Assembly: GCA_945861775.1 (NCBI GenBank) | Contig: CAMAVT010000001.1 | Coordinates: forward strand, 1-61,442 | Direction: 5' to 3' | From: Bifidobacterium breve | Lineage (GTDB): Bacteria > Actinomycetota > Actinomycetes > S36-B12 | Length of the DNA: 61,442 nucleotides | Notes under the pieces: generated by a model | What the model was told of the DNA's origin: nothing | Seen by the model: the letters and a program-made list of their open reading frames with translations, nothing else | Database searches by the model: none | Program-made: the position numbers and the translations under genes | Part shown: one piece after another, positions 25,564 to 49,648 of the stretch | Layout of the letters: each line of letters opens with the position of its first letter | Numbering within the stretch: the stretch's first letter is position 1

Positions 25564-25760
25564 AGGAGGCCAAAGCACTCCTAAATGTCAGACCCATGTG
25601 AGATTCTTTAATTGTTCAAGAAAGCACCGGTAAGCCCTCTGGCTTGGTGCTTGCCAACCGCCCTCGTGACGGTGGCTCCGGAGGAAGAACAGCCCGAGTT
25701 TCATCTTTAGTTTGGTACTAAGGAGTTCACTCTCGGGAAGGTCGAGGTTGAAGGAGTGTT

Positions 25761-27913: not shown

Positions 27914-28159
27914 TCTTTCTGTGTGGTGGTGTCACGTCTCGTAGTGCTGCATGGGACCGACATTTCTTAGTTGCTTAGATTTCAGGGCGGTTGTCCACAA
28001 CCTTAATTTGTCTCTAGCCTTCCCTTTTCTTGCGCATTAGCGTGTGGTTCGTTGAGTTTTCTTGCTAGTGCGCTGTTGCCTCTTGGTCCCTGACCATAAA
28101 CCTCGCCTCCCGTGAAGTGTGCGGGAAATTTGTCGAGGGGAGTGGGGGTGATGGGAAGG

Positions 28160-28330
28160 ATGAACATTCCTTCGCCTAAAGAGAAAGGCCCAGCCAATTG
28201 GCTGGACCTACTCGTAAGGTTCGCCCTAGACAAGCGAATCTTAACACGGGTTGGAGTAATTGCGTCAAGCATTGCTTTACGTGAATTACTTCGATGGCTG
28301 CTTCACATGATCAGAAATGATTGGTGGTGA
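28160..28330 (+). CDS. 56-aa small protein, paralog of the two 53-aa ORFs at 42950-43488
   Basis: MNIPSPKEKGPANWLDLLVRFALDKRILTRVGVIASSIALRELLRWLLHMIRNDWW. Gap-free alignment to the 53-aa peptides, 23/53 identical by hand. Conserved SD GGGGGTGATGGGAAGG precedes the ATG. Confidence 0.55.
   Translation: MNIPSPKEKGPANWLDLLVRFALDKRILTRVGVIASSIALRELLRWLLHMIRNDWW
28178..28231 (-). ncRNA. predicted ~55-nt cis-antisense RNA of the small ORF
   Basis: Extended -10 TGTTAAGAT (complement of 28238-28246). Hairpin (complement of 28187-28208) followed by TTTCTCTTT. Prediction from sequence only. Confidence 0.3.
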
Positions 28331-28457
28331 GTCAGGTGGTGACGGCTTTAATCCGTCACCACTTCCCCACATCCCGAACGAGAAAATGAGAGTGCCGCTC
28401 TGGGATAGTCTCGTGGTGTGATGTGTTGGGCATTGATAATGCTGATGTGGAGGGGCG

Positions 28458-28943
28458 TTGAAGTTGGACGTTGACTGGTTTCCTACAGCTACTGCTAGTG
28501 AGATCTTGCCACGACTTTGGATGGGTGGGCTTACTGAGCAGGAACACCTTGGCGAGCCCCTTGAAGAGGATCACTACTCATTTGATAACCCACATGACCT
28601 CATCATCACCTTGTATGCGGATGCTCAGCCCGCACCGTGGGGTGTTGTTGAGTTGCGTTATGGGTTCCCTGATGACGATATTTCTGACGATCAAATAACT
28701 CCATGTTTACGGCTAGCGTGATATGGATGGGAGGAGTGGCGTTCTGGCGCAAGTGTCCTCATTCGTTGCCAACAAGGCGTTAATCGATCAGGGCTAGTCA
28801 CTGTGCTTGTATTGATGTTTGATGGCATGTCAGCAAATGACGCTATTTCTTTGGTGCGCAGTCGTCGTGGTGGTGCCGTGCTTAATAACAAGGCGTTTGA
28901 GAAGTGGCTGCGCGAGCAAGCACCCACACATTTGGAGGGCTAA
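28458..28943 (+). pseudogene. Cys-based (CX5R) dual-specificity/tyrosine phosphatase interrupted by an in-frame TGA
   Basis: 28458..28718 (…ILPRLWMGGL…) and 28722..28940 are in the same frame. The second part carries VLIRCQQGVNRSG (Cys codon 28767-28769, Arg codon 28785-28787). TGA at 28719-28721 sits between LRLA and YGWEEW. Confidence 0.7.
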
Positions 28944-29974: not shown

Positions 29975-30084
29975 CAGCCTTGATTTGTCACTGGTGTTCA
30001 CGTTTCTTGTTGGTGCCCTGTTGCCTCTTGGTCCCTGACCATAAACCTCGCCTAGAGAGAAAGGCCCAGCCAATTGGCTGGGCC
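29975..30084 (+). repeat. copy 4 (decayed) of the module: 5' UTR fragment plus hairpin only
   Basis: 30018-30053 is identical (36/36) to 28073-28108. Perfect hairpin GGCCCAGCCAATTGGCTGGGCC at 30063-30084. Lacks the 69 bp (28109-28177) that carry SD, ATG and codons 1-6. Confidence 0.7.
30054..30084 (-). terminator. intrinsic terminator (minus strand)
   Basis: Perfect 22-nt palindrome followed on the minus strand by TTTCTCTCT. Confidence 0.5.
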
Positions 30085-30508
30085 TCCTCAAATCTCCAGC
30101 ATTTTGGTTAGTAGTCGTAGAGACATCCGTTCTTGTTGTAGTGTGGATTGAGTTTGAATCCCTTGCGCTCCAGACTTTGCCGGATGGACTTGAGCTGTTC
30201 CTCATCTTGGAATCCCATCCAGTACAGCAAGTGATAGGTCGATACTAGAACCCTTCTTCATGTCTGCGTCTTGCAGTGACATTCCAACCAGAAGTCACGA
30301 TTTCTACTCCTGAAACACCGAGTGGGGTGATCAGGTGCCTGGGGTATCCGCCGTTGGGCATAACGTTCCTTTCGTCAGTTTTTATCTGGCTCAACGAATT
30401 TGTTGAACCCTGACACAACTCAAAGCACCCCTACGGGGTGCTAAAAGACGAGCGCGCGCGTGCACACGTGAAGGGGACGTTTTTGTGGTGTGAGATTGGC
30501 CCTTCTAC

Positions 30509-31696
30509 TCAAGCAATGCGCAAGGTGTTTTGTAAATCTATGAGGGAAATTGCTTCAACACCGTGTTGCATGATGTAACGCTCGGTGCCGGAGTACACGA
30601 CGTAGGCCCTCGTGATGTCAAGGTCTTGTAGTGCTGTGTGAAACCCGCGTGTGAGTTTGGGAGTGGATGAATTCTTGACCTCGATTGCGATTTCAGGTTT
30701 GCCACCCTTGGTCAGCACGAGATCAATTTCTGCCCCATTTGAGGTCCGGTAAAAGTAGGGCTCCCAAGAGGTGGAGGTCAGGTTGGTTGAGATAGAAGTG
30801 ATCACGGATTCGATCACGAGCGACTCAAAACTTGATCCGATTACGGGGTGTCCGCGCAGTTCATCGAGAGTCGCAATACCCAAGAGGGCATGCGCAATCC
30901 CGGTGTCGCGGATAAACACTTTCGGGCTTTTGACCACTCGTTTCCCAACATTTGTTGACCAGGGTCGCAGAAGCCTGATCATGCCGAGCTCGGAAAGCAG
31001 ATCAAGATACCGATCGATTGTTGGATTTGAGATTCCTAGCGAGCCGGCAAGATTTGCGGAATTGAGTAGGCCGCCGGAACTGTGAGCAATCATTTGCCAT
31101 AGTCGCGAGAGAGTTTCGGTTGAGATTCGAGGGGCGAACATGGGAACTTCACGATCAAGGAATGACCTAATGAATGCTTGACGCCATTGCAAACTTGTGG
31201 AGTCGCTTTGCGCAAGCAGACTGTCAGGAAACCCCCCTCGGATGAGCACTTGATCCTGATCGACACCGGTGGGCGCGGCTTCGGCAGGTGTGATTGGCGT
31301 GAGCTCGACAAATGCGAGGCGTCCAGCCAAACTCTCGCTCGCTGCACCTACTAATTCCTGAGATGCTGACCCAAGTAGCAAAAATGATCCGTTTCGGATT
31401 CCCACTCGGCGCTGTTCGTCTATCACCCCCCTGAGAACGGGAAACAATTGGGGATTCCGCTGGACTTCATCGAGCACCAGGAAATCGTTGAGTTTACTCC
31501 GCAGATATACATCAGGTTCGGATAGTCGGTTGGCATCCGCGGGCCGCTCCAGGTCTAGATACATTCCCCCCTGCGCGGCGGCGATTTCCAACGCCAGAGT
31601 CGTCGTTCCTATTTGACGTGGGCCCAGCAGTGCAACAGCAGGGAAACTTTGCAATTTTTGCTCGAGGAGTGGTTTTGCCCAGCGCTCAATTACCAT
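30509..31696 (-). CDS. AAA-type ATPase with DUF4143 C-terminal domain (degenerate Walker A)
   Basis: LLGPRQIGTTTLALE, then LVLDEVQRNPQLFPVLR, and a DUF4143-like C-terminal half. Confidence 0.75.
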   Translation of the reverse strand: MVIERWAKPLLEQKLQSFPAVALLGPRQIGTTTLALEIAAAQGGMYLDLERPADANRLSEPDVYLRSKLNDFLVLDEVQRNPQLFPVLRGVIDEQRRVGIRNGSFLLLGSASQELVGAASESLAGRLAFVELTPITPAEAAPTGVDQDQVLIRGGFPDSLLAQSDSTSLQWRQAFIRSFLDREVPMFAPRISTETLSRLWQMIAHSSGGLLNSANLAGSLGISNPTIDRYLDLLSELGMIRLLRPWSTNVGKRVVKSPKVFIRDTGIAHALLGIATLDELRGHPVIGSSFESLVIESVITSISTNLTSTSWEPYFYRTSNGAEIDLVLTKGGKPEIAIEVKNSSTPKLTRGFHTALQDLDITRAYVVYSGTERYIMQHGVEAISLIDLQNTLRIA

Positions 31697-41443: not shown

Positions 41444-42901
41444 GTGTCACAAGGCGTACACATCAACGGTCACACCCGCGATGGCAAAGGTCCCGTAATC
41501 GAGTTGATCAACCCGGCAACGGGTGAGGTGTGTGACTCGATCACTACCGCGAGTACTGCCGACGTTAGTGAGGCTGTTGCAGCCGCTGTCGCCGCGCAAC
41601 GCGATTGGGCAGCCCGCACACCCGGTGAACGGGCCAAGGTGTTACTGACGCTTGCCGATCTCATCGAAGCGGACGCGCCAGGAATTACGAAGTTGGAAGT
41701 TGATGAAACTGGTAAGCCCCGTGCAGTATTCCAAGACGGTGAACTTCCCTTCGCCGCGGACAACTTGCGTTTCTTTGCTGGAGCCGGGCGTTCCCTGGAA
41801 GGCACCGCAGCCGCTGAACTATCCACGGGTTACACGAGTCTCTTAATGCGCCAACCAATTGGAGTGGTGGGATCAATTACTCCGTGGAACTTCCCGTTCA
41901 TCATGGCGATCTGGAAAATCGGACCGGCTTTAGCCACGGGTAACGCCGTCGTGCTTAAACCGGCACCGGCAACACCACGCAGTTCCATTCGTCTCGCCGA
42001 GTTGGCAATACAAGCGGGTTTGCCAGCTGGATTGTTAAATGTGCTCTGCGGTGGCAATGACATTGGGGCAGCCATGGTTACCGACCCGGATATCCGGATG
42101 ATTTCGCTCACCGGCTCAACGGCGGCCGGCGAGGCCGTGATGTCTGCTGCGGCGCCTCACGTGAAGCGACTTCACTTAGAACTCGGTGGCAAAGCTCCAG
42201 CCCTAGTTTTCGCCGATGCCGATCTAGAACAGATGGCTCGCGCCCTCACGCTCGGAGCGACCTACAACTCCGGCCAAGACTGCACGGCTGCAACTCGAAT
42301 CTACGTGCACGCATCGCGCTACCAAGACACAGTTGAGGCAGTAGCACAAATGATGTCCACTGTTCGCGTGGGAGATCCGTGGGCGGACACCACTGATATC
42401 GGTCCTTTGATTTCCCAAGTCCACCGAGATCGCGTTGACGGGTTTGTCCAGCGCGCCCGTGCAGCCGGTGCACATATTGCTGCCGGTGGTGAACGCATTG
42501 ATTCACCCGGTTTCTACTACCCACCTACCCTCATTTCCGGTGCCGCCCAAAACAGTGAAGTTGTTCAAGGTGAGATCTTCGGTCCTGTTCTTGTGGTTGT
42601 TCCTTTTGAGTCAGAAGAAGAAGGGATTCATTTAGCGAATGACTCGCGTTATGGACTCGCCAGCTCGGTGTGGACCAATGACGTTGCTCGGGCACTACGG
42701 GTGAGTCAGCGCATTGAAGCGGGTGTCACCTGGATCAACGACCATCTTCCGATTGCATCAGAAGCTCCGCACGGTGGTGTAAAGGGAAGTGGATTCGGCA
42801 AAGACATGAGCCACGAATCATTGTTGGAGTACACAACAACGCACCACATTATGATCAAACACTCTGAGCCCGTGAAACACGATTCATTCCGACCAGCCTG
42901 A
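41444..42901 (+). CDS. NAD-dependent aldehyde dehydrogenase (aminobutyraldehyde-dehydrogenase-like)
   Basis: Start trimmed to GTG 41444 (AGGAA RBS). ITPWNFP, ELGGKAP and QDCTAATR catalytic blocks. Confidence 0.85.
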   Translation: MSQGVHINGHTRDGKGPVIELINPATGEVCDSITTASTADVSEAVAAAVAAQRDWAARTPGERAKVLLTLADLIEADAPGITKLEVDETGKPRAVFQDGELPFAADNLRFFAGAGRSLEGTAAAELSTGYTSLLMRQPIGVVGSITPWNFPFIMAIWKIGPALATGNAVVLKPAPATPRSSIRLAELAIQAGLPAGLLNVLCGGNDIGAAMVTDPDIRMISLTGSTAAGEAVMSAAAPHVKRLHLELGGKAPALVFADADLEQMARALTLGATYNSGQDCTAATRIYVHASRYQDTVEAVAQMMSTVRVGDPWADTTDIGPLISQVHRDRVDGFVQRARAAGAHIAAGGERIDSPGFYYPPTLISGAAQNSEVVQGEIFGPVLVVVPFESEEEGIHLANDSRYGLASSVWTNDVARALRVSQRIEAGVTWINDHLPIASEAPHGGVKGSGFGKDMSHESLLEYTTTHHIMIKHSEPVKHDSFRPA

Positions 42902-42949
42902 CGTGGAAGTGGTGGTAACCAAAGTCACCACCACCTGGCACGCATGCGG

Positions 42950-43111
42950 CTACTCCCGCATTACGTCAAAAAGCCATCGGAACAATTCGCGAAGCAAAAC
43001 ACTTAGCAGAACTGCTCCAACCCGTGCTAAGATCCGCATGTGTGGTGCGAACCCATTGGATTGACCCGGCCCTAGGGCCGGGTCTTTCCTTTTCAGCGCA
43101 GGATTTCTCAT
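42950..43111 (-). CDS. 53-aa small basic/amphipathic protein (below the ORF-track cutoff)
   Basis: Manual translation: MRNPALKRKDPALGPGQSNGFAPHMRILARVGAVLLSVLLRELFRWLFDVMRE. SD GGGGGTGATGTGAAGG precedes the ATG. The frame is conserved in unit 2 and at 28160. Confidence 0.55.
   Translation of the reverse strand: MRNPALKRKDPALGPGQSNGFAPHMRILARVGAVLLSVLLRELFRWLFDVMRE
43040..43094 (+). ncRNA. predicted ~55-nt cis-antisense RNA, unit 1
   Basis: Extended -10 TGCTAAGAT at 43025-43033. Perfect palindrome at 43063-43084 plus TTTCCTTTTC. Prediction only. Confidence 0.3.
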
Positions 43112-43326
43112 CCTTCACATCACCCCCTATCCCCTCGTAATTTCCCCGCAAACATCACAGGGATCGAGGACCCAGGTCAGGGACATAGGAATAACGCCGC
43201 ACCAACACACTCACTTAGCAGCACAACGCTAAATCAATCGCAAACCCATGCCAAGATACAAAGTGACGACTGTGGAAAAGCGGAAGTGGTGGCAACCGAA
43301 GTCACCACCACCTGGCACGCATGCGG

Positions 43327-43488
43327 CTACTCTCGCATCACGTCAAAGAGCCATCGGAACAATTCGCGAAGCACAAGGCCTAGCAAAACCGTCCCAACCC
43401 GTGCTACGATTCGCTTGTTGGTGGCGAACCTATTGGATTGTCCCGGCCCTAGGGCCGGGACTTTCTTTTTCAGCGCAGGATTTCTCAT
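43327..43488 (-). CDS. 53-aa small protein, tandem paralog
   Basis: MRNPALKKKVPALGPGQSNRFATNKRIVARVGTVLLGLVLRELFRWLFDVMRE. 42/53 identical to unit 1, and 8 codons differ only synonymously. Confidence 0.55.
   Translation of the reverse strand: MRNPALKKKVPALGPGQSNRFATNKRIVARVGTVLLGLVLRELFRWLFDVMRE
43417..43470 (+). ncRNA. predicted ~55-nt cis-antisense RNA, unit 2
   Basis: Extended -10 TGCTACGAT at 43402-43410. Palindrome at 43440-43461 plus TTTCTTTTT. Prediction only. Confidence 0.3.
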
Positions 43489-43703
43489 CCTTCACATCAC
43501 CCCCTATCCCCTCGTAATTTCCCTGCAGGAAACACAGGGATCGAGGACCCAGGTCAGGGACACAGGAATAACGCCGCACCAACAAACTCACTCAGCAATG
43601 CAACGCTAAAACAAAAACAAACTCAGGCCTAGGCGTAAAAAGATCACTGTGGACAACAATCAATGGCGGAGGGTGACTGTCAGTTGTGGAGTATGGTTTT
43701 CCA

Positions 43704-44201
43704 ATGAAGATCACTCGAGTCATCCTCGCGACTGTTCTGTCCCTTGGTCTGGTAACTGCTGCTGCGGTTGCACCCGTGACTGCTGCGGAGAAGCCGACTA
43801 CCGTTCGCGTGTACCACCAGGCCGTAAGCCCCATCGCGGTGAGTGGAACCGGCATCGGAACCGTGCGAACGTTCTTTATTCCAATATCGGTGGACGGAAA
43901 GTCGGCAGATAATCAGTACTTGACAGGCACGCTGACCACCCTTGATCCGGCTATGCCAAATGGTCAGGAACTACGCTCATCAAACCTCACCTATGTTTTT
44001 GGCGCTGAGAAAGATCAGATGGTCGTTGGTGGTGTGTCTCTTTACCCACCAGCTGGAGCAACAATTGCAGCCGGGCAAAGCACCGTCCGGCCAGTAATCG
44101 GTGGATCAGGGAAATACTCCGGCGCCCGCGGCCAGGTTGTTTCGACAAATATGGGTGCGAACGGTTGGACTCACATATTCAAGGTCTGGTTGGGGAAGTA
44201 G
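43704..44201 (+). CDS. secreted small protein, possibly dirigent/allene-oxide-cyclase-barrel-like
   Basis: Signal MKITRVILATVLSLGLVTAAAVAPVTA. GGSGKYSGARGQV resembles the dirigent-type GGTGxFxxARG block. Start trimmed to ATG 43704. Confidence 0.5.
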   Translation: MKITRVILATVLSLGLVTAAAVAPVTAAEKPTTVRVYHQAVSPIAVSGTGIGTVRTFFIPISVDGKSADNQYLTGTLTTLDPAMPNGQELRSSNLTYVFGAEKDQMVVGGVSLYPPAGATIAAGQSTVRPVIGGSGKYSGARGQVVSTNMGANGWTHIFKVWLGK

Positions 44202-44242
44202 TTGGTAACGAGTAAATATCACTTTTGGAGTATGGTTCTCTG

Positions 44243-44740
44243 ATGAAGATTTCCCGTCTCATCCTCGCAACGCTCCTGTCCCTTGGCCTAGTAACCGCTG
44301 TTGCGGTTGCACCCGTGACCGCTGCGGAAAAGCCAATTACGGTTCGCGTGTATCACCAAGCGGTAACCCCGATCGCCGTGAGCGGAACCGGTATCGGTGC
44401 CGTGCGGACATACTTCATTCCCATGGCAGTGGACGGCAAGTCAGCAGATGACCAGTACTTGACAGGCACGCTGACCACACTTGACCCGGCTATGCCGAAT
44501 GGCCAGGAATTGCGCTCATCAAATCTCACCTTTGTTTTTGGCGCTGAGAAAGATCAGATAGTTGTTGGCGGAGTTTCCTTTTTCCCACCAACTGGAGCCA
44601 CCATTGCAATCGGGCAGAGCACCACACGGCCAGTAATGGGCGGATCCGGGAAATACTCCGGCGCCCGCGGCCAGGTTGTTTCGACGAATTTGGGGGCGAA
44701 CGGTTTTACTCACACATTTAAGGTCTGGCTAGGAAAATAG
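44243..44740 (+). CDS. tandem paralog of the preceding secreted protein
   Basis: About 87 percent identical to 43704..44201 by hand count (22 differences in 165 aa). Confidence 0.5.
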   Translation: MKISRLILATLLSLGLVTAVAVAPVTAAEKPITVRVYHQAVTPIAVSGTGIGAVRTYFIPMAVDGKSADDQYLTGTLTTLDPAMPNGQELRSSNLTFVFGAEKDQIVVGGVSFFPPTGATIAIGQSTTRPVMGGSGKYSGARGQVVSTNLGANGFTHTFKVWLGK

Positions 44741-44751
44741 TTCGACTCGTA

Positions 44752-49400: not shown

Positions 49401-49648
49401 CAACGATCCCAAGGATCTGAAATTTCCTCAACCCCAAATGCGCGACGCTGGGCGTCCCATTTCGCATCAGTTGGACTACTGAAGATCAAACTTGCGCGTT
49501 CCCATGAAACCCAATTATCCCCAAAAAGTGGCGTAATTTTTGCAACAGGCCGACCCGCTACTGTGACCGTCACCGTCTCACCGGCTTCCACCTCACGCAA
49601 GACTTCGCTGGCATTTTGGCGCAATTCCCGCACCCCAATCGTTGACAT
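49400..49648 (-). CDS. Phd/YefM-family antitoxin
   Basis: MSTIGVRELRQNASEVLREVEAGETVTVTVAGRPVAKITP is the family-typical N-terminus. Confidence 0.8.
   Translation of the reverse strand: MSTIGVRELRQNASEVLREVEAGETVTVTVAGRPVAKITPLFGDNWVSWERASLIFSSPTDAKWDAQRRAFGVEEISDPWDR

Follow-up and report, generated by a model that had tools for sequence, protein, structure and literature searches.

A 377-bp tandem repeat in the window (the whole 61,442-nt stretch of DNA that was analysed) carries in each copy a 53-codon peptide gene with a putative antisense transcription unit inside its reading frame. It is probable that these copies belong to a new type I toxin-antitoxin (TA)-like family, with both transcripts, the outcome of their pairing and the toxicity of the peptide being inferred from sequence. 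Such an architecture had been suggested with reservations by the sequence-only reading, and it is supported by the conserved frame, the TGnTAnnnT motif, a hairpin with compensatory changes, a T-run on one strand only and the recurrence of arrays. That the locus represents a bona fide type I TA family of Actinomycetota, in abundant freshwater Nanopelagicales-like hosts, with the antitoxin embedded in the toxin CDS and a mimic of it in the leader, can be put forward only tentatively, with a slight lean towards doubt.

In the proposed mechanism, the minus strand would give rise to a long-leader mRNA for a cationic peptide of 53 residues, predicted to comprise a disordered basic N-terminus and one amphipathic helix of 32 residues. 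An extended -10 element (TGnTAnnnT) on the opposite strand, at codons 27–29, would drive a ~54-nt RNA up to an intrinsic terminator, whose stem corresponds to codons 8–17 and whose U-tract is complementary to the Lys-rich codons 4–9. This RNA would be perfectly complementary to about codons 4–25 of its own mRNA. It may block initiation or elongation, or trigger cleavage of the duplex, and would thereby keep the peptide unexpressed. A second layer is inferred in the leader, where CU-rich stretches may pair with the G-rich ribosome-binding block and a 5' segment may pair with codons 20–31, the target of the single-stranded tail of the antisense RNA.

Repeat units and the peptide gene

Tandem Repeats Finder (TRF) describes 42905-43614 as one array (period 377, 1.9 copies, 89% matches, 0 indels, score 1180), and a repeat search of the window pairs 42905-43204 with 43282-43581 as a gapless direct repeat (90%), in agreement with the tandem repeat described initially. 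The array begins 2–4 nt beyond the end (42901) of an aldehyde dehydrogenase (ALDH) ORF, which matches Pfam Aldedh with an E-value of 2e-163. Since the repeat search found no inverted-repeat pair of at least 40 nt in the window, the units have no visible terminal inverted repeats. A third, diverged unit and a decayed remnant lie elsewhere in the window.

42905..43281, minus strand: repeat unit 1, the downstream unit in sense orientation (TRF period 377; nhmmer family profile 42902-43233, E 1e-99)
43282..43658, minus strand: repeat unit 2, the upstream unit in sense orientation (TRF; nhmmer 43279-43610, E 4e-100)
42950..43111, minus strand: peptide gene 1, 53 codons plus stop, MRNPALKRKDPALGPGQSNGFAPHMRILARVGAVLLSVLLRELFRWLFDVMRE (ORF list; frame kept in relatives; purifying selection)
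43327..43488, minus strand: peptide gene 2, 53 codons plus stop, MRNPALKKKVPALGPGQSNRFATNKRIVARVGTVLLGLVLRELFRWLFDVMRE (ORF list, copy comparison, relatives)
28035..28371, plus strand: third, diverged unit (W3) of subfamily B (blastn 70% identity; tblastn E 1e-9; nhmmer E 7e-107)
28160-28330, plus strand: intact ORF of the third unit, 56 aa, MNIPSPKEKGPANWLDLLVRFALDKRILTRVGVIASSIALRELLRWLLHMIRNDWW
28035-28159, 28187-28208 and 28334-28364: leader, palindrome and post-stop hairpin of the third unit
29996..30091, plus strand: decayed subfamily-B remnant (repeat search; sequence; nhmmer profile positions 17-73 and 140-182)

In the remnant a partial leader is fused to the palindrome, with the Shine-Dalgarno (SD) block, the ATG and the body of the ORF lost by deletion. 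A weak tblastn match at 49540-49626 is attributed to chance, as no unit was detected at that place by nhmmer.

Both minus-strand ORFs (43111..42950 and 43488..43327) are present with exactly the peptide sequences quoted at the outset. As had also been noted, the remaining mechanical ORFs of the list are each broken in one copy, none being common to both. A recount of the differences between the two genes reproduced the earlier hand count of 22 nt (9/3/10 by codon position) and 11 residue replacements. By the Nei-Gojobori method there are 11 synonymous and 11 non-synonymous changes, giving a dN/dS of 0.30, the lowest among the six frames. This agrees with the rough estimate given at the outset, in which replacements fall below synonymous changes. 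The coding signal is only suggestive as long as it rests on the two window copies, and becomes strong after relatives are added.

In these relatives (3 MAG, 26 metagenome and 13 further loci) the 53-codon frame is free of indels down to ~30% identity, which settles favourably the question of whether homologues would keep it. Tree-based dN/dS is 0.46 overall and 0.28 for codons 32–53, i.e. the C-terminal helix (58 synonymous changes on 16 sites, 51 non-synonymous ones on 50); for the hairpin codons it is near 1. Changes on the tree are distributed 81/62/116 over the three codon positions. The motifs RELLRWL and RI[LV]ARVG are kept at 30–40% identity despite diverged DNA. This comparison establishes, at the level of codon substitutions, that the 53-codon ORF is a real gene under purifying selection.

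AlphaFold2 predicts a single helix at residues 21–52 (32 residues), with a pLDDT of 93–95 over residues 31–50. The net charge of the peptide is +4 to +8 and its C-terminal hydrophobic moment 0.6–0.7. With the best 19-residue Kyte-Doolittle window at 1.3–1.5, under the usual transmembrane threshold, and with Arg and Glu in the predicted helix, the peptide is presumably no classical membrane anchor of the Hok or Ldr type. Judged from these predictions, it is less hydrophobic than classical membrane toxins, cationic and amphipathic. At 53–56 codons the ORFs meet the criterion of a small stand-alone gene (below 60 aa) typical of type I TA.

The predicted antisense unit within the reading frame

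The following plus-strand elements are located inside the two peptide genes, and their minus-strand counterpart inside the third unit:

43025..43033, plus strand: extended -10 TGCTAAGAT of predicted antisense RNA 1, inside codons 27–29 (conserved in 44 copies; parsimony)
43402..43410, plus strand: extended -10 TGCTACGAT of predicted antisense RNA 2 (sequence; conserved in 44 copies; parsimony)
43040..43093, plus strand: predicted antisense RNA 1, ~54 nt, start and end inferred (fold -30.7 kcal/mol, z -5.6; terminator scan; covariation)
43417..43470, plus strand: predicted antisense RNA 2, with hairpin 43440-43461 and U-tract (fold -26.8 kcal/mol, z -4.0; terminator scan)
28178..28246, minus strand: predicted antisense RNA 3, with extended -10 TGTTAAGAT at 28238-28246 and a transcript from ~28231 to 28178

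Both -10 motifs read as originally reported, and TGnTAnnnT is conserved: in 44 copies the counts are T43 G43 n T42 A44 n n n T44. Parsimony places 0, 0, 1, 0 and 0 changes at the consensus sites, against 7, 3, 7 and 2 at the n sites. The third positions of codons 28–30 changed 1, 0 and 0 times, compared with a mean of 5.7 for codons 32–53. Codon 28 ends in TA in all copies except a decayed one (ATT, L034 unit 1777), and TTA and CTA make up 9% and 8% of the Leu codons locally. The encoded residues vary across the element (RILAR, RIVAR, RSLAW, RTVER). In these alignments TGnTAnnnT therefore appears essentially invariant and constrains three adjacent synonymous sites, a rare NTA codon among them. 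Since a predicted leader:ORF helix also takes in three of the invariant -10 bases, part of their conservation could be structural.

The hairpin lies about 30 nt downstream of the extended -10. Predicted antisense RNA 1 would consist of a 5' tail of ~22 nt, the terminator hairpin (43063-43084) and the U-tract; folding energies of the predicted RNAs are -26 to -31 kcal/mol (z -4 to -5.6), and RNA 3 folds at -26.3 kcal/mol versus -19.1 for its sense complement. The terminator scan scores the palindromes 43063-43084 and 43440-43461 as terminator-like on the plus strand only, with tails TTTCCTTTTC and TTTCTTTTTC, so that the one-sided T-run claimed for them holds. In 1.5 kb three terminator-like sites were found, the two palindromes and one on the minus strand, against a shuffle mean of 1.8.

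At least four different palindrome sequences occupy identical codons, the hairpin sequence differing between subfamilies; that of the third unit is likewise different in sequence and located at the same codons as in units 1 and 2. Compensatory changes occur in 5/9 pairs, and 95.9% of cells pair on the antisense strand. None of 500 shuffles reached the observed covariation score, number of paired cells or number of cells changed on both sides. At least six T within 9 nt past the stem are present on the antisense strand in 33/38 copies and on the sense strand in 0/38. In 32/44 copies the antisense strand gives the more stable fold, by 5–8 kcal/mol in subfamily C. In the asymmetry of G.U versus A.C pairs, ~7–8 independent events favour the antisense strand against 3; for assigning the strand, this is suggestive only and not decisive. 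Taken as a comparative result, promoter motif, hairpin and T-run are conserved as functional elements would be, which points to an antisense transcription unit inside the ORF, with the transcript itself and any effect of its pairing inferred.

Predicted leader structure and known systems

The sense mRNA is predicted to carry a long leader and a hairpin past the stop codon:

43112..43236, minus strand: conserved leader of peptide gene 1 (alignment; consensus fold; leader:ORF co-evolution), with SD-like block 43112-43127, segment 43198-43219 complementary to codons 20–31 and candidate -10 TAGCGT 43226-43231
43489..43613, minus strand: conserved leader of peptide gene 2 (sequence, alignment, consensus fold, co-evolution), with SD-like block 43489-43504, complementary segment 43575-43596 and TAGCGT 43603-43608
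42907..42936, minus strand: hairpin past the gene 1 stop, likely the 3' end or stabiliser of the sense mRNA (helix 16)
43284..43313, minus strand: hairpin past the gene 2 stop (consensus fold)

In the consensus mRNA fold the SD block (GAGGGGA..GGGGGU), which is unusually distant from the ATG (12–19 nt), pairs with CU-rich leader segments. The fold is 97.8% paired with 16 compensatory pairs; it was derived from the very alignment used for scoring. Post-stop helix 16 has 14 pairs, 4 of them with compensatory changes, and is 98% paired; the sense hairpin expected after each stop was thus found. The z-scores of the leader:ORF duplex versus shuffles are weak individually (mean -1.7). More informative is the comparison between own and paralogous ORFs: within subfamilies the duplex is more stable with its own ORF (p 0.004, 0.010 and 0.025). 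No sense promoter was identified with confidence. TAGCGT fits subfamilies A and B and has no clear counterpart in C and D, a conserved TTGTCCACA motif lacks TAnnnT at a fixed distance, and a TGCTAAGTG-like leader block lacks the final T. Since each candidate falls short, the sense promoter was left unassigned.

The peptide and the RNA are without known relatives in protein or RNA libraries. Pfam gave no hits for the three window peptides and, for 24 family members, only weak single-member hits far below the cut-offs; NCBIfam hits to family peptides were likewise weak and far below the curated cut-offs. PADLOC did not match the family peptides, PHROGs yielded just two single-member hits (E about 0.07), the PDB sequence search chance-level matches only, tblastn against phage and plasmid collections no match and a word-index protein search with peptide 1 no hit. 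No Rfam family reaches its gathering score in the repeat; a permissive search returned sub-threshold hits to generic terminator-bearing sRNAs, the best being SorX (24.4 bits, threshold 46.6).

Type I TA systems combine a small protein, typically below 60 aa and toxic to its host upon expression, with an antisense RNA that acts as antitoxin by base-pairing with the mRNA of the toxin. Most toxin families are hydrophobic peptides with a predicted transmembrane helix, and toxin mRNAs are folded such that the ribosome-binding site is occluded. The ibs/sib and ldr/rdl systems of Escherichia coli are multi-copy, some in tandem, with very small genes absent from annotation, and a separate antisense RNA of ~60–140 nt is encoded in cis with every copy, variable regions setting the partner. 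The family described here resembles them in its tiny unannotated peptide genes, present in several copies and some of them tandem, and in the predicted cis-encoded antisense RNA of each copy, in which variable regions would give a copy-specific partner. It differs in host phylum and in lacking sequence similarity (no member reaches a Pfam gathering score). In contrast to these systems, the whole predicted antisense gene with promoter, body and terminator lies within the ORF, the terminator stem is coding, and the peptide is not simply a hydrophobic helix but cationic and amphipathic.

Plasmid R1 hok/sok and Helicobacter pylori aapA1/IsoA1 have long structured toxin-mRNA leaders with an interaction between the 5' and 3' ends, and AapA1 loci occur in several copies, as do those of the present family. 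A long leader predicted to be structured, a ribosome-binding site predicted to be sequestered and a predicted long-range intramolecular pairing that competes with the antisense target would be shared features. However, there is no homology, and the long-range partners are a 5' leader segment and codons 20–31 instead of the 5' and 3' ends.

A paper from 2025 limits the type I TA systems identified until then to Proteobacteria, Firmicutes and Tenericutes, and blames this narrow range on homology-biased searches (PMC12390103). The same study proposed msoT1/msoA1 of Microcystis aeruginosa, a candidate type I system with growth-inhibition data in E. coli, as the first cyanobacterial case (PMC12390103). 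Like msoT1/msoA1, our family is a candidate beyond the three known phyla that was found via locus features rather than homology (PMC12390103). Unlike it, the family belongs to Actinomycetota and has no growth-inhibition data; its comparative support for antisense promoter and terminator is much deeper. No report of type I TA systems from Actinobacteria was found in the literature examined.

Distribution, alternative explanations and significance

Public MAGs and metagenomes contain ~45 distinct copies in at least five subfamilies, hosted by freshwater Nanopelagicales-like Actinobacteria. The copies often occur in arrays of two or three units, which recur across loci and extend the claim of tandem multiplication to relatives. 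An exhaustive HMM search gave 13 cluster representatives and a profile search 31 proteins; by these searches, the family is rarely called by gene finders.

For the toxicity of the peptide there are only indirect hints, namely decayed copies, tandem arrays and TA or defence neighbours; toxicity itself is inferred. Hence, the main alternative, which we regard as unlikely but not negligible, is a genuine small-protein gene under a cis-antisense RNA whose product is not a toxin, and which is not an addiction or defence module. Such a product could be, for example, a peptide that is induced by stress and associates with membranes or binds nucleic acids. Everything that supports the gene and its antisense unit counts equally for this explanation, and a cationic, amphipathic peptide without strong hydrophobicity or toxicity data is compatible with it. 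Yet tandem amplification, more than 10 independent decayed copies (lost start codons, frameshifts, deletions), recombinant chimeras and scattered genomic contexts beside genes including AbiEi/AbiEii, Phd/PIN, HNH and transposase are more in keeping with selfish or toxic modules than with housekeeping peptides.

It is very improbable that palindrome and T-run are merely the intrinsic terminator of the convergent ALDH operon, the '-10' being a by-product of the residues R-I-L-A-R. In the window and in L001-L004 the units do lie convergent with ALDH directly past its stop, and this hairpin is the first plus-strand terminator with a T-run past the gene. At most other loci, however, the downstream gene is co-directional, and hairpin, T-run and -10 are retained without a convergent gene in W3, L030, L034, L035, L036, L039 and L042. 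With at least seven such loci, the possibility that the hairpin serves ALDH alone, raised beforehand as a potential refutation, fails family-wide. Moreover, the residues over the -10 vary while its TG, TA and T bases are fixed, the synonymous third positions are frozen and the rare Leu codon is fixed.

Even less credible is a non-coding repeat, such as a MITE-like element or an sRNA gene, with a fortuitous ORF. Dispersed and tandemly repeated units, a leader more conserved than the ORF between the two window copies, and an ORF seldom predicted by gene callers and without a word-index hit would suit it. It is contradicted by the indel-free frame over five subfamilies, the codon-position bias and the low dN/dS in the C-terminal half, the persistence of both peptide motifs and the absence of visible terminal inverted repeats. 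A leader peptide or attenuator, suggested by a short ORF with a strong hairpin, can practically be dismissed: the window ORFs face the 3' end of ALDH, a convergent gene, and so have no downstream gene to regulate, the hairpin lacks a T-run on the sense strand, and downstream genes vary between loci.

If this is indeed a bona fide type I TA family, a complete antitoxin gene would reside within a toxin CDS, with codons 8–17 doubling as terminator and codons 27–29 as promoter, which is unusual. Equally unusual would be an mRNA leader that bears a co-evolving mimic of the antitoxin seed; by pairing with the hypervariable codons 18–25, it would give every paralogue a private RNA partner. One 160-nt stretch would be read as protein, promoter and terminator, and the footprints of these overlapping codes are measurable as frozen synonymous sites, a fixed rare codon and a dN/dS near 1 at the hairpin codons. 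Synonymous mutations can abolish the predicted antisense promoter and leave the peptide unchanged. Little is known about defence and persistence in the hosts, which are uncultured lake bacteria of ecological dominance. If well supported, an actinobacterial family would extend the phylum range of type I TA systems, and it would show that type I loci are recognisable through sequence conservation alone.

The tandem repeat and its relatives

The aldehyde dehydrogenase (ALDH) gene (Pfam Aldedh, E 2e-163) has its stop at 42901 and is followed by a head-to-tail duplication. What the sequence-only reading had described here is fully present in the sequence. The tandem repeat was recovered at 42905-43614 with a period of 377 bp (89% matches, no indels, score 1180), and each copy contains an intact 53-codon frame on the minus strand. 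The two frames differ at 22 nt, as had been counted by hand (9/3/10 by codon position, 11 residues replaced). Replacement changes had been judged rarer than synonymous ones, and the Nei-Gojobori dN/dS between the two copies is indeed 0.30, the lowest among the six frames. The 22-nt palindromes at 43063-43084 and 43440-43461 give a terminator-like call on the plus strand only, i.e. antisense to the ORF, and the proposed antisense -10 motifs, TGCTAAGAT and TGCTACGAT, precede them there by 29 nt.

Peptide ORFs of the tandem copies and remnant unit in the window
43111..42950, minus strand: peptide ORF 1, 53 codons, intact
43488..43327, minus strand: peptide ORF 2, 53 codons, intact
29996-30091: remnant unit, part of the leader fused to the palindrome; SD, ATG and ORF body deleted

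A blastn search of the window with the unit returned a third, diverged unit (W3) on the opposite strand with 70% identity. It is complete, with the same leader (GGGGGTGATGgGAAGG immediately 5' of the ATG), a 56-codon ORF (28160-28330) and a hairpin after the stop codon. Its palindrome occupies the same codons with a different sequence, GGCCCAGCCAATTGGCTGGaCC. A profile scan of the window detected no units beyond the two tandem copies, W3 and the remnant.

Several features of the surroundings were noted. A second tandem duplication adjoins the array (43673-44750, 539-nt period, 82% identity); it encodes two proteins of 171 aa (43686-44201 and 44225-44740), whose N-termini resemble signal peptides; neither has a Pfam match. 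The gene after W3 is split across two frames (28458-28721 and 28803-28943, plus strand), suggestive of a frameshift; a weak, sub-threshold match to DSPc (dual-specificity phosphatase) is confined to the second piece. The same gene is present in related contigs (L009, L012-L015); right after it comes a unit truncated at its 5' end, without the leader and with CTG for ATG, in which the putative antisense promoter and terminator are retained. A small convergent ORF (30108-30230, minus strand; ending ...KNGCLYDY*; no Pfam match) has a 3' end that is conserved just downstream of the window remnant and of many units of subfamily B (L010, L016, L018, L020, L023, L024). Near the remnant lies an AAA_14/DUF4143 ATPase gene (30509-31696, minus strand). 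A SAM-IV riboswitch is found at 25614-25748, plus strand (53.1 bits; Rfam gathering threshold 38).

Outside the window, a species-representative genome collection yielded three loci, all in MAGs labelled Actinobacteria or Candidatus Nanopelagicales and each with the full-length 53-codon frame beside an ALDH 3' end. A metagenome collection yielded 26, and 13 more were added by retrieving the contigs of the most divergent proteins. Of 1.84 billion cluster representatives searched exhaustively with an HMM, only 13 matched, and a profile search of a 5.8-billion-protein set matched 31 proteins, all unnamed or 'hypothetical' and none with a Pfam domain. The searched phage and plasmid collections contained no relative. 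In total about 45 distinct copies, falling into at least five subfamilies (A-E), were extracted. Arrays are frequent and comprise two units 377-378 nt apart (L004/L005, L022) or about 800 nt apart (L009, L012-L014), three units 370 nt apart (L039), and three units representing two subfamilies (L034). Neighbouring genes vary between loci, among them AbiEi/AbiEii, Phd/PIN, an HNH nuclease, an integrase-type transposase and a Schlafen-like helicase. A subfamily-D variant on 15 contigs (L030-L033; gene 4001-4237 in L030) adjoins AbiEi/AbiEii; in it, the canonical ATG does not share a frame with the conserved C-terminal part, the protein reported by gene callers has 78 aa and starts upstream, and the TG of the antisense extended -10 is lost.

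The peptide gene

The expectation that homologues maintain the frame was met: all intact copies align over 53 codons without any indel, down to about 30% residue identity. Parsimony on a neighbour-joining tree of 28 copies gave 108 synonymous changes on 40 sites and 151 non-synonymous ones on 119 (dN/dS 0.46; 81/62/116 by codon position). For codons 32-53 there are 58 synonymous changes on 16 sites and 51 non-synonymous ones on 50 (dN/dS 0.28). The motifs R-I-[LV]-A-R-V-G and R-E-L-[LF]-R-W-L are retained despite the divergence of the DNA. Hence, a real peptide gene is very highly probable.

An AlphaFold2 prediction with 24 sequences as input has a disordered N-terminus of 20 residues and a single helix at 21-52 (pLDDT 93-95 over 31-50). 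Net charge of the peptides ranges from +4 to +8, and a hydrophobic core of 10-11 residues precedes a strongly amphipathic C-terminus (hydrophobic moment 0.6-0.7); the best 19-residue hydrophobicity, 1.3-1.5, is under the usual transmembrane threshold. None of the protein libraries searched recognised the peptide. In the leader of subfamily A, a start codon is paired with a stop (ATG-TGA) 9 nt ahead of the ORF ATG (43118-43123 and 43495-43500, minus strand). Since this leader ATG is in frame in subfamilies B and C (MGRM..., MVRM...), the true start codon is ambiguous there.

Putative antisense promoter and terminator in the reading frame

Opposite codons 27-29, the antisense bases of 44 copies read T43 G43 n T42 A44 n n n T44, which is the extended -10 consensus TGnTAnnnT. 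By parsimony on a tree of 39 copies, the five consensus sites changed 0, 0, 1, 0 and 0 times, the single change being in a decayed copy, and the four n sites 7, 3, 7 and 2 times. The third positions of codons 28, 29 and 30 changed 1, 0 and 0 times, those of codons 32-53 a mean of 5.7 times. Codon 28 is TTA, GTA, CTA or ATA in all copies except one decayed unit (ATT, L034 unit 1777), even though TTA accounts for just 9% and CTA for 8% of Leu codons in the long ORFs of the window. Over the motif, the encoded residues differ between copies (RILAR, RIVAR, RTLAR, RSLAW, RIIAR, RTVER), so protein constraint does not explain the base pattern. Three of the invariant bases coincide with a helix predicted between leader and ORF; such a helix would also constrain the n positions and would give positions 79 and 87 no special status.

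The terminator-like palindrome in codons 8-17 is constant in position and subfamily-specific in sequence.

Palindromes of subfamilies A-E (C and E given as antisense strand)
Subfamily A: GACCCGGCC-CTAG-GGCCGGGTC
Subfamily B: GGCCCAGCC-AATT-GGCTGGGCC
Subfamily C: GCTCAGCC-ATTT-GGCTGGGC
Subfamily D: longer stem around CCCAGTT-TCCC-AACTGGG
Subfamily E: GCCTCGCCC-ATT-GGGCGGGGC

Across 38 distinct sequences, five of the nine hairpin pairs changed on both sides, and 95.9% of cells are paired on the antisense strand versus 93.0% on the sense strand; none of 500 shuffles matched the observed covariation score, percentage of paired cells or number of cells changed on both sides. At cells where a transition gives G.U on one strand and A.C on the other, the antisense strand is favoured in 15 and the sense strand in 5, an asymmetry estimated at 7-8 independent events versus 3 and thus suggestive, not decisive. 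RNAfold gives the antisense strand the more stable fold in 32 of 44 copies; in subfamily C the margin is 5-8 kcal/mol. On the antisense strand, 33 of 38 copies have at least six T among the nine bases after the stem; on the sense strand no copy does. Of the five exceptions, three belong to subfamily D, in which the longer stem is directly followed by TTTTT. The complement of the T-run encodes a Lys-rich K-[RKE]-K stretch. Over the hairpin codons dN/dS is 0.93, which suggests that the RNA rather than the protein shapes this part of the peptide.

The hairpin is not merely the terminator of the neighbouring ALDH gene, which would have refuted the sequence-only reading. The gene is convergent in the window and in L001-L004, and its read-through would stop at the hairpin, but the same promoter, hairpin and T-run are kept at seven loci with a co-directional next gene downstream (W3, L030, L034, L035, L036, L039, L042). 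Since ALDH read-through would end there, copy 1 may, by inference, receive additional antisense transcription from the ALDH 3' UTR.

Predicted antisense RNAs of about 54 nt (start assumed 6-8 nt after the -10)
43040-43093: RNA 1, -30.7 kcal/mol
43417-43470: RNA 2, -26.8 kcal/mol
28231-28178: RNA 3, -26.3 kcal/mol

All three are predicted to consist of a tail of about 22 nt, the hairpin and a U-tract, with fold z from -4.0 to -5.6. We consider it likely that the internal antisense transcription unit is real.

Leader, turnover of units and likeness to type I toxin-antitoxin loci

The 125 nt preceding the ATG are more conserved than the ORF. When 16 full units are folded to a consensus, the G-rich block (CGAGGGGA..GGGGGU) is paired with the CU-rich leader segments CCUCG and GCCUCU or AUUCCU, and the leader is closed by a 5' segment, GYURAGU...UUGUUGGUGCG, pairing with codons 20-31. 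The ORF hairpin and the post-stop hairpin (14 pairs, 4 compensatory) are retained. The fold has 97.8% of cells paired and 16 compensatory pairs, a score that is inflated since the structure was derived from the same alignment. Duplex energies served as an independent check: the duplex of the leader segment is stabler with its own ORF region than with those of same-subfamily paralogues (A, p=0.004; B, p=0.010; others, p=0.025). This region includes the hypervariable codons 18-25 (codon 23 changes: 8, 12, 17) and would also be the target of the single-stranded tail of the antisense RNA. Consequently, the leader presumably carries a co-evolving mimic of the antisense seed, which may hide the antisense target, the ribosome-binding site or both.

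TAGCGT, some 120 nt before the ATG, is no more than a candidate sense promoter. The motif (T)TGTCCACA(G) at the unit start, about 160-170 nt upstream of the ATG, is conserved in all subfamilies (window about 43270-43279, about 43645-43655 and 28003-28016; also L030, L034-L036, L039). It has no promoter-like partner at a fixed distance, and in W3 it lies within the inverted repeat GGTTGTCCACAACC.

More than ten copies have decayed independently: by replacement of leader and ATG, leaving CTG (L009_2, L012_2, L013, L014_2, L015), an ATT start (L028), frameshifts or internal stops (L025, L027, L030/L032), deletions (L029, window remnant) or altered C-termini (L004_2/L008, L014_2, L039_791). Chimeric units (L004_2, L004 2878-3072; L008 109-303; protein P0014) join the N-terminal half and palindrome of subfamily B to the C-terminal half of subfamily A, evidence that paralogous units recombine. 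Decay, chimeras, tandem arrays and variable contexts fit a selfish or toxic element and are typical of toxin-antitoxin modules, which by itself is not proof.

By analogy, the architecture of the unit is that of a type I toxin-antitoxin locus: it combines a small peptide with a predicted short cis-antisense RNA, has a structured leader and occurs in multiple copies. At this level the earlier comparison is supported. The closest analogues are ibs/sib and ldr/rdl for their multi-copy, cis-antisense organisation, and hok/sok and aapA1/IsoA1 for control through mRNA folding. The peptide belongs to no known toxin family, and no RNA family matches the unit. We lean only slightly towards peptide and antisense RNA functioning as toxin and RNA antitoxin. 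The T1TAdb paper does not mention Actinobacteria, and our literature search found no actinobacterial type I case. The units constitute a new family, in a phylum without prior credit for type I toxin-antitoxin systems, and coding and regulatory signals overlap unusually tightly within them.
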